Below are positions 1 to 17,418 of a stretch of 17,418 nucleotides of DNA, one piece after another. The stretch lies in IMG/VR virus record IMGVR_UViG_643692022_000009. One strand, given 5' to 3'. Origin of the DNA: a virus (Duplodnaviria > Heunggongvirae > Uroviricota > Caudoviricetes). Every line of letters begins with the position of its first letter. Positions within the stretch are counted from its first letter, which is position 1. The notes under the pieces were generated by a model, which did no database searches, had not been told where the DNA came from, and worked only from the letters and a program-made list of their open reading frames with translations. The position numbers were made by a program, and so were the translations under genes.

Positions 1-792
1 ATGCCAATAAATGGAGTCAGTGCTGCGATGCGCGAACGGGTATCGCAGCAATTAAAAGAAATAGAACGTCGCTATGGCGTGAAAGTGCTGTACGCCTGCG
101 AATCGGGGAGTCGCGGTTGGGGATTTGCCTCTCCCGACAGCGACTACGATGTACGATTTTTGTATGTTCACCCGCTGGAATGGTATCTGCGGGTGGAGGC
201 GCCGCGCGATGTTATTGAGTTGCCTATTGACGACGAGTTAGATGTTTCAGGCTGGGAGTGGCGCAAGGCGCTGGGATTACTGAAAGGAGCGAATCCGACG
301 CTGATAGAATGGCTGGATTCTCCGGTGGTCTATCAACAAGATGAAGAAACGATAACGCCGCTTAAGGCAATGGTGCCGAAGTGGTTTTCTCCGCTGCGTG
401 CGCGTTGGCATTATTATTCGATGGCGCGGAAAAACTTTCGCGGTTATTTGCAGGGCGACGTAGTTCGGCTGAAAAAATACTTTTACGTGCTGCGACCACT
501 ACTGGCTGTGCGTTGGGTTGAAGCGGGAAAAGGCGTACCGCCAATGCGCTTTGCCGAGTTACTGGCGGGAAGCGAGCTTGATGCACCGTTACGTGCAGAA
601 ATAGACGAACTGCTGGAACGTAAACAGCGCGCGGGAGAAGCGGAATATGGTCCGCGCCGTCCTTTGTTACATGCGTTTATTCGTGTGGAACTGGCGCGTG
701 GGGAAATTCCACCAGTGTTACCGGACAGCAGGGACGGAGATGCCAGGGAACTGGATGGGTTGTTGTATCAAACAGTGATACGCCGGGCGTGA
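1..792 (+). CDS. Pol-beta superfamily nucleotidyltransferase (263 aa); N-terminal NTase fold plus C-terminal helical domain. The ORF begins exactly at the window edge, so the true start may lie upstream.
   Basis: Translation contains the hG[GS]-x(9-13)-Dh[DE]h signature of Pol-beta-type nucleotidyltransferases: 'LYACESGSRGWGFASPDSDYDVRF'. Uninterrupted 263-codon ORF with typical enterobacterial GC content. Confidence 0.6.
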   Translation: MPINGVSAAMRERVSQQLKEIERRYGVKVLYACESGSRGWGFASPDSDYDVRFLYVHPLEWYLRVEAPRDVIELPIDDELDVSGWEWRKALGLLKGANPTLIEWLDSPVVYQQDEETITPLKAMVPKWFSPLRARWHYYSMARKNFRGYLQGDVVRLKKYFYVLRPLLAVRWVEAGKGVPPMRFAELLAGSELDAPLRAEIDELLERKQRAGEAEYGPRRPLLHAFIRVELARGEIPPVLPDSRDGDARELDGLLYQTVIRRA

Positions 793-14563: not shown

Positions 14564-14744
14564 TTTCCTCTCCGTTATTTTGTTCTTCCTGAGTGATGAC
14601 AGGTGTCAGATGATTGCGGGCAATCATGGTCATGACCCACTCGTTGTCTTCTGGCAGATCAATTTCACTGTTCGGCCACAATAAGATTTCTTGTCCGTCG
14701 GCAAGGGTGACGCCGCTTGCCGGGCCGTTGTAGATGTATTTCAT
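14547..14744 (-). CDS. Small conserved phage protein (65 aa), possibly Mu gp38-like (DUF2635-type)
   Basis: Tightly packed between the upstream ORF (ATGA overlap at 14741-14744) and the sheath gene (17-nt overlap), matching the small ORF that precedes the sheath gene in Mu-like tail modules. The family assignment is from memory and not verified. Confidence 0.35.
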   Translation of the reverse strand: MKYIYNGPASGVTLADGQEILLWPNSEIDLPEDNEWVMTMIARNHLTPVITQEEQNNGEEIVHGS

Positions 14745-15196
14745 TCAGTTTCCTCGTAATTAACTTCAGTAAGCAGGGTAAGGTCCGTGCTTTCCCGTTT
14801 CGCGATAAACAGCGAGCTGGTCGCCATTTCCAGGATGTAGCGGCAGAAACCACCGCTCTCGCCTGCATTGATTTCTTTTTCAAGCCAAAGAAGACGCTCG
14901 CAATCAGGAAGCTGGATCCCCCCCAGTGCGCTGCGTATGCGGTCCAGTGCGTTTAACGCGTCACAATTTTTGCCAACAATAACGGTGGCAGTTAAACGGA
15001 GCGTTTGCTGTTGCACGAGAGCATCACTGCTTTCAGACATGGCAAATAGAGAACCGCTATAATTAATAATCACTGTAACTTGCTGCGTCTGCGGAATATA
15101 TTTATGGGCATCAACCGATGAAATAGATACATCCATTTCGGGATTCTGTTCACATAATCTGGTCACAACAGAATTCATTACTGATAAAATTTCCAT
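14741..15196 (-). CDS. Hypothetical tail-module protein, 151 aa; candidate tail completion / terminator-type protein (Mu gp37-like by position)
   Basis: Uninterrupted ORF with AAGGGA 8 nt upstream of the ATG, co-oriented with and immediately upstream of the sheath operon. No diagnostic motif recognised. Confidence 0.35.
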   Translation of the reverse strand: MEILSVMNSVVTRLCEQNPEMDVSISSVDAHKYIPQTQQVTVIINYSGSLFAMSESSDALVQQQTLRLTATVIVGKNCDALNALDRIRSALGGIQLPDCERLLWLEKEINAGESGGFCRYILEMATSSLFIAKRESTDLTLLTEVNYEETE

Positions 15197-15313
15197 ATAG
15201 GGTATCCCTTAATTATCGCTGATTCGTTAACGCTCACTTCGTTATCGTTGAAATGTATTCTGACGTAGTGAAGGTGAAGGATCTTTTAATCTGCTTTAGA
15301 GAAAAAATTGAAT

Positions 15314-15628
15314 TTAATAGCTACCGCGTTGTAATAGCTCTATTTTGCTATATAAGGCATCCAGCTTTGCTTCTAATACTGCCTGGCCACGAAGATAATC
15401 TTCTCTGCGGACATAATGCAGCGGAAGCTCGGCACGAAATTCGAGAAATTCTCTTTCCAGTTTCGACCAGTTTGTTTCTGATTCCCGGCGCGCGTTTTCC
15501 AGAGATTCAAAACGCTCATTAAGTCTTTTTTCAATTTGCGCTAACAGCAATTTTCCGGCAGCAAACATTAATCCAACGAAGGAAAGCATAAGGGAGATCA
15601 CTTCCCAAAAATCGATACTGAGTTTCAT
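15314..15628 (-). CDS. Membrane-anchored coiled-coil protein, 104 aa; candidate i-spanin or other lysis accessory protein
   Basis: N-terminal hydrophobic segment ('VISLMLSFVGLMFAAGKLLL') followed by a charged helical region with heptad character; located 12 nt downstream of the lytic transglycosylase gene. No o-spanin lipoprotein partner was identified. Confidence 0.45.
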   Translation of the reverse strand: MKLSIDFWEVISLMLSFVGLMFAAGKLLLAQIEKRLNERFESLENARRESETNWSKLEREFLEFRAELPLHYVRREDYLRGQAVLEAKLDALYSKIELLQRGSY

Positions 15629-15640
15629 CGGCCCCTCTGA

Positions 15641-16246
15641 TTAGTGAAGACAGCTTGCCTGTCCCCAGAGTAAATAGCGGGCGGCGTGTTGATAGAGAAT
15701 CATCTTTGGATAGCGACGATTTTCTCGCCAGTTCGTGGCGCTGCGCCCGGCGTTGACTTGCTCAACATGACCAAACCAGAGAGTGGCATCTAGCCCTTTG
15801 GATACAGCCAGTTTTTTATCCCGATTAACCCATCCCTGACCGCCGTTATAGGCGCTTAGGGTAAACGCCATACGCTGACAATCATTTTTCGCAGAGATGT
15901 TTTTCCACAAATACTGGTCATATTGCACCAGCGCGCGAATCGCCCAGGTTGGGTTATACGGTTTGTTTTCACGCAACTGCGGATACAACTGGCTTACCCA
16001 TGTCGCTGTAGCAGGCATGAATTGCGCCATACCTTGTGCGCCAACGGGGGAACGTACCATTGGCTGCCAGGCGGACTCCTGGTGTAATTGCCCGGCAAAG
16101 TCGGCCACTGGGGCATTCAGTCCCCAGACTTCTCGAGCGGTACGAATTAGTTCGTTTCGCCATGCCAGAGAGGCTCTCGGCGGTTCAGAGGCGTTGAGTG
16201 GGAAAAGAACGAAAATAATCATAGACGCGATATATTTCAGCCACAT
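15641..16246 (-). CDS. SLT-domain lytic transglycosylase (endolysin) with N-terminal signal or SAR-like hydrophobic segment, 201 aa from the ATG at 16246
   Basis: Contains the family-1 lytic transglycosylase motif with catalytic Glu: 'HQESAWQPMVRSPVGAQGMAQFMPATA'. N-terminus 'MWLKYIASMIIFVLFPLNASEPP'. The ORF track extends to 16345, but the ATG at 16244-16246 lies 2 nt after the upstream gene stop and begins the hydrophobic segment. Confidence 0.8.
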   Translation of the reverse strand: MWLKYIASMIIFVLFPLNASEPPRASLAWRNELIRTAREVWGLNAPVADFAGQLHQESAWQPMVRSPVGAQGMAQFMPATATWVSQLYPQLRENKPYNPTWAIRALVQYDQYLWKNISAKNDCQRMAFTLSAYNGGQGWVNRDKKLAVSKGLDATLWFGHVEQVNAGRSATNWRENRRYPKMILYQHAARYLLWGQASCLH

Positions 16247-16248
16247 CA

Positions 16249-16536
16249 CTATAGCCCTAACGCGACGGAAAGGCAGACGGCAGCAACGATGATAGCCCGG
16301 CGAATCATTGCCGCCGCGCAGCAACGCGGTTCCTTCCAGGGGCAAAAAGAGTCAGGCCGTGCCCAGGGGAACAAACTGCGATCGAGCCAGTATCCCAGCA
16401 CCGCGGAAAGCGAAACCAGGCTTAGTTTATAAATGACGACCGGGATTTGTGCTGAAGAGGTCCAGCCGATCACGACAAACAGCGCGACGGAAGCGACCAG
16501 CCAGCCGGAAAGCCGGGGAAATGTGATTTTTTTCAT
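16249..16536 (-). CDS. Small membrane protein with three hydrophobic segments, 95 aa; holin candidate
   Basis: GGAGAT lies 5 nt upstream of the ATG. Hydrophobic stretches 'WLVASVALFVVIGW', 'IPVVIYKLSLVSLSAVLGYWL' and 'AIIVAAVCLSVALGL'; stop lies 2 nt before the endolysin ATG. It lacks the charged C-terminal tail typical of holins, so confidence is moderate. Confidence 0.5.
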   Translation of the reverse strand: MKKITFPRLSGWLVASVALFVVIGWTSSAQIPVVIYKLSLVSLSAVLGYWLDRSLFPWARPDSFCPWKEPRCCAAAMIRRAIIVAAVCLSVALGL

Positions 16537-16832
16537 ACGATATCTCCTGATAAATGAGCGTTTAGTGTCGTCAGAACCCGCCAGTGAAGAATGAAAAAAG
16601 CTTTAATAAATAAGTTTAAAAAATAGATTCTCTATAAATGAACATGCCCGCTAATAAATCCACCCGTCAATAAAAGAGCAAAAGGTGACCTGGCGAACAA
16701 GTGCATCATTATGCAGGGGAAAGATGATGGTGGATCGTAGGAATATTCGATAGTTATTTGATTTTTAAAGTTTGTTTAAGAAAGTCAGCGACTGTGAGGG
16801 AAACGATCTTTTTACACTACAAGTAAAAATAA

Positions 16833-16852
16833 TACTGTATGTGTATACAGTA
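16833..16852. promoter_or_regulatory. LexA (SOS) box, TACTGTATGTGTATACAGTA
   Basis: Matches the E. coli LexA consensus TACTGTATATATATACAGTA (CTGT-N8-ACAG) at 18 of 20 positions, differing only at two central, weakly conserved positions. It lies in the divergent AT-rich intergenic region between the Mor-like gene and the lysis/tail operon. Confidence 0.65.
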
Positions 16853-17073: not shown

Positions 17074-17418
17074 ATGATACGAAAATCAAAAGAGATGGCC
17101 CGGACACCGGAGATCATTAACGACCTGGCTTTTCATGCATCGCAAGTTCTGATTGAAAGCATCAATCTCGACAGTTCATCGGCAGAAAATGTGGGCTTTG
17201 CCATTGCCGACCGAATGATGCGTAACTGGGGCGGACAAAGCATTTATTTCCCTAAGGGGATCTCCGGACGAGCATCGGAGCGTGACTACCAAATCTATAG
17301 CGAGTGCGATGGGCGCAACTACGCCGAATTAGCGAAGAAATATAATCTGACGCTGCAATGGATTTATAAGATTGTGAAGCGGGTGCACGCAGAAAAACAG
17401 CAGCAACGTCGGATGTAA
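17074..17418 (+). CDS. Mor/C-family transcriptional activator (phage Mu middle/late activator family), 114 aa
   Basis: C-terminal region 'WGGQSIYFPKGISGRASERDYQIYSECDGRNYAELAKKYNLTLQWIYKIVKR' parallels Mu Mor ('GGGQVYIPRGQALDSLIRDLRIWNDFNGRNVSELTTRYGVTFNTVYKAIRR'). Complete ORF ending in TAA at the window edge. Confidence 0.8.
   Translation: MIRKSKEMARTPEIINDLAFHASQVLIESINLDSSSAENVGFAIADRMMRNWGGQSIYFPKGISGRASERDYQIYSECDGRNYAELAKKYNLTLQWIYKIVKRVHAEKQQQRRM

Follow-up and report, generated by a model that had tools for sequence, protein, structure and literature searches.

A probable spanin-less lysis operon with an exported lytic transglycosylase and a gp25-like membrane protein in a headless BcepMu/carotovoricin-type tail element

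The 17,418-nucleotide stretch of viral DNA analysed here (the window) carries three co-directional, minus-strand open reading frames (ORFs) within positions 15314–16536. The original prediction for this stretch gave the same start and end coordinates and read the three as a lysis cassette, and this designation is borne out by a holin of Pfam family PF13272 and an enzyme of the PHROG 669 'endolysin' family. The region is likely to be the lysis operon of a headless tail element of the BcepMu/carotovoricin type, in which the endolysin is an exported SLT-domain enzyme, the third protein is not a spanin and the spanin genes have been deleted. This reading is built on family assignments, gene order, the deletion itself, predicted membrane topology and a signal of selection. 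The cassette is an ordinary BcepMu/carotovoricin-type combination of holin and SLT endolysin, unusual in the loss of spanins across genera and in the retention of a gene related to that for BcepMu gp25 (gp25-like).

The holin gene (16249–16536, minus strand) encodes a 95-residue protein of the BcepMu gp21 family. It scores 95.7 bits with Pfam Holin_2-3 PF13272, where the cutoff is 27 (E 2.4e-27), and also hits PHROG 1528 'holin' (E 1e-35). Its hydropathy profile shows three hydrophobic segments, at about residues 9–27, 31–50 and 72–95, and a Shine-Dalgarno sequence, AGGAG, lies 8 nucleotides upstream of the gene. The protein had been singled out for lacking a charged C-terminal tail, and it does end in a hydrophobic ...VALGL. 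All eight aligned homologues, including BcepMu gp21, B3 ORF24 and the carotovoricin holin, end in LGL, so the uncharged C-terminus is characteristic of the family. The holin gene is directly upstream of the endolysin gene, its stop codon 2 nucleotides before the SLT ATG. The overlap of the two genes that had been proposed is an ORF-calling artefact, arising only if the SLT ORF is extended to a TTG at 16345; the ATG at 16246 is the RefSeq start in Escherichia coli and is kept in the Enterobacter and Superficieibacter orthologues.

The endolysin gene (15641–16246, minus strand) encodes a 201-residue orthologue of BcepMu gp22, a family-1 lytic transglycosylase with an SLT domain. The assignment as a lytic transglycosylase, made originally from the QES and GAQGMAQFMP motifs, both of which are present, is confirmed by matches to SLT family PF01464 (E 3e-14; 53 bits against a cutoff of 21.3) and to PHROG 669 (E 1e-60). 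The catalytic glutamate is E57, within HQES, which aligns with the catalytic-region motif RQESAWNP of Slt70 (1qsa), and the conserved GMAQ and AYNGG motifs are also found. Identity to gp22-type endolysins ranges from 49 to 97%, and is 56% to the endolysin of Fc02, a locus discussed below.

The N-terminus of the enzyme, MWLKYIASMIIFVLFPLNA, is hydrophobic and uncharged as originally described. Residues 1–19 (16190–16246, minus strand) form a predicted Sec signal peptide, MWLK / YIASMIIFVLF / PLNA, followed by SEPP. Lys4 lies in the n-region, the h-region spans about 11 residues, and a helix-breaking proline at −4 is followed by leucine at −3 and alanine at −1. The reading is rule-based, using an n/h/c layout with an h-region of 7–15 residues, small residues at −1 and −3 and a helix breaker, and by these rules the segment is classed as a type I Sec signal peptide. 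The same layout is common to 11 orthologues, each of which has a basic residue or two, then a strongly hydrophobic core, and an AxA-type site at the same position, which abuts a conserved mature start, (E/Q)PP(R/A)A. Cleavage-type sites include AEA↓K in Enterobacter, VNA↓A in Superficieibacter, VQA↓A in a metagenomic relative (L014), VCA↓D in carotovoricin, ATA↓A in Yersinia, VAA↓Q in BcepMu, ANA↓A in Salmonella, AKA↓D in B3 and ACA↓A in PhiKM. A signal peptide predicted by SignalP has also been reported for the KS10 homologue of BcepMu gp22 (PMC2628397). The endolysin is therefore probably exported by Sec with a cleavable signal peptide rather than a signal-anchor-release (SAR) domain. With an export signal on the enzyme, the periplasm would be reachable without a holin hole, in agreement with the original suggestion that this endolysin does not strictly need one.

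The Fc02 endolysin (locus L017, 3270–3899) differs at this point. Its N-terminus, MKRLLTLGLLGLLSAC, has a canonical lipobox, LLSAC, instead of an AxA-type site, which suggests that this SLT enzyme is anchored as a lipoprotein. The published grouping classes the Fc02-type endolysin as SAR, unlike the lipobox reading.

The third gene (15314–15628, minus strand) encodes a bitopic membrane protein of 104 residues that belongs to the BcepMu gp25-like family: it shows 47% identity to BcepMu gp25 (E 1e-35) and matches PHROG 462 (E 3e-34). No Pfam family matches even at E<=10. The family comprises 995 cluster representatives at E<=1e-3 and has no Pfam model; tblastn recovers homologues in BcepMu, phiE255, B3, JBD67, PhiKM, KP12 and others. 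It is marked by a near-invariant motif, LPxxYVRREDYxRGQxVIEAKLDA. The original description of a transmembrane segment plus a coiled coil is in keeping with the N-terminal transmembrane domain and long helices of a confident AlphaFold2 model (predicted local distance difference test score 80), in which one helix (residues 7–67) includes the transmembrane domain at about residues 10–28 and a second spans residues 75–101. The break in this helix-break-helix arrangement falls at the LPxxYVRRED part of the motif. Foldseek comparison of the model with BFVD yielded nothing below E 4.

Charge distribution across the membrane segment gives a predicted topology. In 19 of 19 members the nine-residue N-terminal flank has a net charge of −1 to −2 with no more than one Lys or Arg, and the C-terminal flank has two to four. 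The positive-inside rule thus predicts an N-out/C-in protein throughout, opposite to Rz; the Rz proteins of the relatives have basic N-termini. As for genomic context, a gp25-like gene directly follows a true Rz/Rz1 pair in BcepMu, B3, PhiKM, the Yersinia and Salmonella prophages and carotovoricin. By these comparisons, we identify the 104-residue protein as the orthologue of BcepMu gp25 and not as a spanin.

PHROG 462 is labelled 'lipoprotein', and we reject this label for the family. The annotation has spread through the family but seems to originate from B3-type members (B3 ORF28; L004, 2501–2890), whose transmembrane domain happens to contain LGAC. The window protein has no cysteine, and most family members have none at the LGAC position.

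The spanins themselves are missing from the cassette. The junction between the SLT stop and the gp25-like ATG (15629–15640, minus strand) is the 12-nucleotide sequence TCAGAGGGGCCG, which holds a GAGGGG ribosome-binding site. Across five headless loci (the window, E. coli, Enterobacter, Superficieibacter and L014) this junction measures 12–24 nucleotides, whereas the five Rz-containing relatives compared carry a 420–675-bp Rz/Rz1 pair there. Seven Rz, Rz1 and related spanin proteins found no match in the window by tblastn (best E 0.045). The search for an embedded lipobox ORF that had been proposed as a check was run for o-spanins, u-spanins or other lipoproteins; it returned none in any frame of 15100–16700 and no credible candidate in six frames across the window, in line with the earlier report that no o-spanin ORF could be found. 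As a positive control, the same scan recovered the embedded o-spanins in six of eight related cassettes. We also considered whether the junction preserves a remnant of Rz and rejected this, as the 12 nucleotides resemble the 5' end of Rz in some relatives and the 3' end in others. Because this resemblance is ambiguous, only a clean deletion is claimed. The comparison indicates that the ancestral Rz/Rz1 pair was cleanly deleted and that its loss has been kept across genera. The spanin partner, originally called unclear, is thus not an unrecognised gene; the whole pair has been deleted.

The genes that remain are maintained. E. coli, Enterobacter and Superficieibacter each have intact copies of all three lysis ORFs. 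Between genera, where synonymous divergence (dS) is saturated, the ratio of nonsynonymous to synonymous substitution (dN/dS) is 0.05–0.10 for the holin, 0.05–0.08 for the SLT enzyme and about 0.08 for the gp25-like protein, compared with 0.04–0.08 for the tail sheath. The three lysis genes are under strong purifying selection. At the protein level the gp25-like product is more conserved between genera (79–84% identity) than the SLT enzyme (68–72%). Because it has been kept under purifying selection in headless elements, through deletions on both of its flanks, a role in the head or in packaging is excluded. Its retention and selection argue against decay but do not prove a role in lysis. That the 104-residue protein is needed for normal lysis is a proposal to which we give somewhat less than even confidence.

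BcepMu and its relatives B3, PhiKM, KP12 and KS10 are the closest counterparts of the cassette. They have an orthologous PF13272 holin, a signal-bearing SLT endolysin (49–59% identity) and a gp25-like protein (47%), in the same order and with the same tight spacing as in the window. The BcepMu order is gp21 holin, gp22 SLT endolysin, gp23 Rz, gp24 Rz1, gp25, gp26 and TerS. These phages keep Rz/Rz1 between the endolysin and gp25, and have gp26-like, packaging and head genes, all of which the window lacks. The loop between the second and third transmembrane domains is shorter in the window holin than in BcepMu-type holins. The tailocin published from this lineage is the carotovoricin cluster, described as encoding a holin, a lytic transglycosylase, a sheath and other products (PMC13195805). 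In Pectobacterium its order is holin, SLT enzyme, 224-residue Rz, gp25-like protein, 103-residue gp26-like protein, Gp37, a 65-residue protein, sheath and tube. It too is headless, its gp25-like protein is 65% identical to that of the window, and the two share an AT-rich motif upstream of the Gp37 gene. However, carotovoricin keeps the 224-residue Rz with its embedded lipoprotein Rz1 and the 103-residue gp26-like gene, which the window lacks, and it occupies a chromosomal site different from that of the lysC-linked island to which the window corresponds. In one carotovoricin locus (L006) there is no Mor gene at the holin-proximal end, and a host gene for an outer-membrane efflux protein (OEP) lies directly upstream of the holin.

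Complete phage, carotovoricin and lysC island, in that order, form a natural deletion series, one that isolates the holin, the exported transglycosylase and the gp25-like protein as the lysis set retained by a headless element. The analysis also corrects a likely mis-annotation, as i-spanin or 'lipoprotein', in a large and uncharacterised family of Mu-like late proteins. Two questions follow: whether gp25-like proteins are equivalent to the Mu releasin, and how tail particles leave a Gram-negative cell without spanins.

From these comparisons we infer signal-peptide cleavage, a trigger mechanism, a role for the 104-residue protein and a mode of regulation. Induction would be SOS-dependent, through a LexA box in the control region, and would involve a Mor-family activator, after which the three proteins would be made. 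The SLT enzyme would be exported by Sec by means of its short N-terminal signal peptide, with cleavage most likely after Ala19, and would reach the murein without passing through a holin hole. Timing would fall to the holin, whose collapse of the membrane potential would unleash an enzyme already in the periplasm, much as in pinholin/SAR and fOg44 Lys44-type systems. The 104-residue protein, N-out/C-in with its conserved coiled-coil domain in the cytoplasm, may act from the cytoplasmic face on the control of the holin or of the endolysin. Rupture of the outer membrane would have to proceed without spanins, through turgor or shear once the murein is lost, or by way of an unknown factor.

Precedents for such a system are the Sec-exported Lys44 of Oenococcus phage fOg44 and the pinholin/SAR systems of phages 21 and P1 (referred to in PMC2628397). 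In these systems the endolysin passes through Sec without a holin hole and the holin serves as a timing or depolarising trigger; the window cassette would share both features. Lys44 is a muramidase acting in a Gram-positive host, whereas the window enzyme is a lytic transglycosylase. SAR endolysins stay tethered to the membrane and uncleaved, unlike the predicted window enzyme.

The position of the gp25-like gene invites comparison with phage Mu. Mu gp25, a DUF2730 protein of 99 residues, is N-out/C-in with a cytoplasmic domain. The SAR endolysin of Mu depends on it for release, and its gene lies downstream of the endolysin gene, a few genes away (PMC9239132). In Mu-like phages of Pseudomonas, SLT endolysins are accompanied by DUF2730 proteins of type II (PMC9239132). 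The 104-residue protein shares the predicted architecture, with about 100 residues, an N-out/C-in N-terminal transmembrane domain and a helical cytoplasmic domain of about 70 residues. It also shares the position. In Mu-like genomes DUF2730 lies just downstream of the endolysin and spanins, before gp26 and TerS, while gp25-like is directly downstream of the endolysin here and, in complete relatives, after Rz/Rz1 and before gp26 and TerS. Fc02 links the two arrangements. Its order is PF13272 holin, small transmembrane protein, SLT enzyme, small ORF, Rz with embedded Rz1, DUF2730, gp26-like and TerS, so that a DUF2730 protein (PF10805, E 4.6e-9) accompanies the same holin family and an SLT endolysin 56% identical to that of the window (E 2e-74). 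In profile searches, every fetched locus that includes this slot carries exactly one of the two families, gp25-like or DUF2730.

Likeness in sequence is another matter. We tried the 104-residue protein as a member of DUF2730 and rejected it, since BLASTP gave no alignment to Mu gp25 and Pfam no match at E<=10; the motif YVRREDY...IEAKLDA of the gp25-like family has no DUF2730 counterpart. Mu also differs in having no holin and a true SAR endolysin, whereas the window has a holin and an endolysin that looks cleavable by signal peptidase. We regard gp25-like and DUF2730 proteins as positional and architectural analogues, with no homology detectable in their sequences. By analogy, gp25-like proteins might be a second, sequence-unrelated releasin-type family, interchangeable with DUF2730, acting from the cytoplasmic face of the inner membrane and of enough importance to be retained, beside just the holin and the endolysin, in a spanin-less tailocin lineage. 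This suggestion is tentative and, on balance, we doubt it. If true, it would mean that tail particles are released in these Enterobacteriaceae without the need for spanin-mediated membrane fusion.

In one further locus, a prophage of Leeia aquatica (L018, 2769–4375), the gp25-like gene follows a VanY-like peptidase gene (a faint Pfam hit) and an Rz-like gene, and not an SLT gene. The gp25-like family can therefore accompany more than one type of endolysin. This parallels the endolysin promiscuity noted for DUF2730.

Several points weigh against this account of the cassette and its third protein. Profile-profile comparison by hhalign gave the gp25-like family a probability of 0.7% (19-sequence profile) or 4.4% (150-sequence profile) against an alignment of Mu gp25 and 1.7% against the Fc02 DUF2730, and none of 150 representatives of the gp25-like family match PF10805. 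A releasin would be superfluous for an endolysin that is cleaved and soluble in the periplasm. The gp25-like gene always precedes gp26-like and TerS in complete phages, and could belong to another module. Leucine at −3 of the endolysin is tolerated by signal peptidase and is not ideal. We found no experimental report of hole formation for any PF13272 member, and Pfam labels the family 'putative'. Lysis could also be inefficient after the loss of the spanins. Finally, the island is known from its genes, and particle formation and lysis are both predictions.

Some of the same points favour a 104-residue protein that has no part in lysis and is instead a conserved Mu-like late protein, acting, for example, in tail or particle assembly at the membrane or in late-gene regulation. 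This is possible, though we think it improbable. The function of the gp25-like family is uncharacterised, its fixed place before gp26-like and TerS would suit such a protein, its pairing with an unrelated VanY-like endolysin in Leeia shows that it is not endolysin-specific, and a cleaved endolysin needs no release factor. Yet the gene has been kept under selection despite deletion of Rz/Rz1 on one side and of the gp26-like-to-head segment on the other. It appears to be part of the lysis operon and precedes the separate promoter-like motif that would start the tail operon, and the corresponding slot in Mu is held by a protein proven to act in lysis.

The original prediction had also allowed for a SAR endolysin, and of its two alternatives Sec export with cleavage fits the sequence better than SAR. 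In its fullest form this explanation gives the enzyme an uncleaved N-terminal anchor and has the 104-residue protein promote its release as Mu gp25 does. The agreement in position and architecture with DUF2730 in Fc02 and Mu is in its favour, as are the suboptimal leucine at −3 and the placing among SAR-type enzymes, by Chamblee et al., of the SLT endolysins that accompany type II DUF2730 (PMC9239132). The segment itself, however, is not that of a SAR domain, which is a membrane-spanning, uncleaved transmembrane domain rich in the weakly hydrophobic residues Gly, Ala, Ser and Thr. Its uncharged stretch is 16 residues long with proline at position 16, which leaves a hydrophobic core of about 11–13 residues, too short for a membrane-spanning anchor. 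It is rich in Ile, Phe, Val and Leu, and the fraction of Gly, Ala, Ser and Thr is 0.25 compared with 0.59 in the SAR domain of Mu gp22. The only basic residue before the core is Lys4, the AxA-type site recurs at the same position in the orthologues, and no DUF2730 homology was found by the searches above. We therefore consider a SAR endolysin with a releasin analogue unlikely, and retain the cleavable signal peptide.

We think it very unlikely that what remains is a prophage lysis module in decay, no longer functional, with spanin loss as the first step. Deletion of the spanins and the head genes would fit such a history, but the three ORFs are intact in three genera with dN/dS of 0.05–0.10 at saturated dS, ribosome-binding sites and promoter-like motifs are conserved and the full tail module is intact. 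The original reading of the 104-residue protein as an i-spanin, with a hidden or missing o-spanin partner, fares worst and can be set aside: an N-terminal transmembrane domain with a helical, coiled-coil region directly downstream of the endolysin is a superficial likeness, against which stand the opposite predicted topology, the lack of similarity to cognate Rz (BLASTP against BcepMu gp23, E 0.39), a length that leaves only about 75 residues to span the periplasm, the absence of a lipoprotein ORF in any frame, and the presence of gp25-like beside genuine Rz/Rz1 in all complete relatives. The Rz proteins encoded before gp25-like have 140–224 residues and, in most cassettes, an embedded Pro-rich lipoprotein Rz1.

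Expression of the putative lysis operon may be controlled from the intergenic region between Mor and the holin. A candidate LexA (SOS) box, TACTGTATGTGTATACAGTA (16833–16852), lies there with two mismatches to consensus, and none of 200 shuffled sequences gave a match. A promoter scan found a sigma-70-like minus-strand promoter (16861–16834) directed toward the holin, and the box overlaps its −10 hexamer. The box is kept in E. coli (L001, 2849) and Superficieibacter (L015, 4726) and is absent from the Enterobacter locus L012. Nearer the gene, an AT-rich motif, TTTTTTAAACTTATTTATTAAAG (16601–16623, minus strand), sits 65–87 nucleotides upstream of the holin start as a candidate late promoter element. 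A second copy, TTTTTTCTCTAAAGCAGATTAAAA (15284–15307, minus strand), occurs in the 117-nucleotide gap between the gp25-like stop and the Gp37 start. The pattern TTTTTT..AAA..ATTAAAG, derived from these same two sites, has no others in the window. The AT-rich block upstream of the holin is conserved in four genera, and the motif is found in E. coli (L001, 3078–3100 and 4394–4417) and in the carotovoricin loci L006 (5755–5776) and L007, in the Pectobacterium locus L006 upstream of Gp37. Ribosome-binding sites and promoter-like motifs are likewise conserved among the relatives. The AT-rich motifs are candidate Mor-dependent late promoter elements, and their placement suggests two late operons, lysis and tail, with gp25-like as the last gene of the lysis operon.

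The genes on either side fit a tail element. The Mor-family late transcription activator (17074–17418, plus strand; 114 residues; Pfam PF08765, E 4e-38; PHROG 532) is divergent from the holin. After the 117-nucleotide gap, the tail module runs through Gp37, a 65-residue ORF, sheath, tube, tape measure, baseplate, tail fibre and fibre-assembly genes. Its first gene (14741–15196, minus strand; Pfam PF09646, E 1e-31) belongs to the Gp37 family and is a possible tail terminator. Gp37 directly follows the lysis cassette, at the point where complete phages have gp26-like, terminase, portal and head genes. By tblastn, gp26-like (two queries), TerS (one) and portal (one) proteins gave no match in the window (best E 0.045). 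Neither the 104-residue protein, Gp37 nor the 65-residue protein has a family in NCBIfam, and the holin has none there above cutoff.

The contractile-tail module is complete and, both in the window annotation and between lysC and yjbD in E. coli, it is unaccompanied by head, packaging, replication or integration genes. The closest phages are BcepMu-like. Of 5426 complete E. coli genomes, 197 carry a chromosomal counterpart of the 1.5-kb lysis region, at about 96% identity. Strain A10 of E. coli has the order pgi, lysC, Mor (reverse), holin, SLT, 'membrane protein', Gp37 and tail genes, and beyond the tail fibre and assembly protein come a nucleotidyltransferase, slipin, yjbD and rluF; this lysC-to-yjbD island has no integrase, replication, packaging or head genes. 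The Enterobacter cloacae complex and Superficieibacter electus carry the same island at the same, lysC-linked chromosomal site. Gene content thus places the window as a headless element of the carotovoricin type and a candidate R-type tailocin. We found no paper describing the lysC-linked island. The 'tailocin' of a paper on E. coli ST131 is a P2-like prophage and a different element, and the kosakonicin and enterocoliticin papers hold nothing on lysis genes. The island is probably an undescribed carotovoricin-type tailocin, and may be one of clinically relevant Enterobacteriaceae. About 4% of complete E. coli genomes have it, and it also occurs in Enterobacter.

The tail-only island is about 16.5 kb long. 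Beyond the tail-fibre assembly gene, positions 1–2219 hold a 151-residue ORF (1764–2219), a 242-residue ORF (822–1550) with a PHROG 'glycosyltransferase' match and a nucleotidyltransferase gene (1–792, plus strand). E. coli A10 has the 151-residue hypothetical gene and the nucleotidyltransferase, followed by slipin, and is missing the 242-residue gene. This end of the island looks like a variable cargo or defence-like region.

The metagenomic relative L014 (contig DRR741398_1897, 1–12315) has the order holin, SLT, gp25-like, Gp37 and sheath, and is likewise spanin-less and headless. There the headless order adjoins MuA-like (rve) and MuB-like (AAA) transposition genes, a repressor-like helix-turn-helix gene and Mor. 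L014 may represent a stage partway through domestication, or a tail-only element that can transpose.

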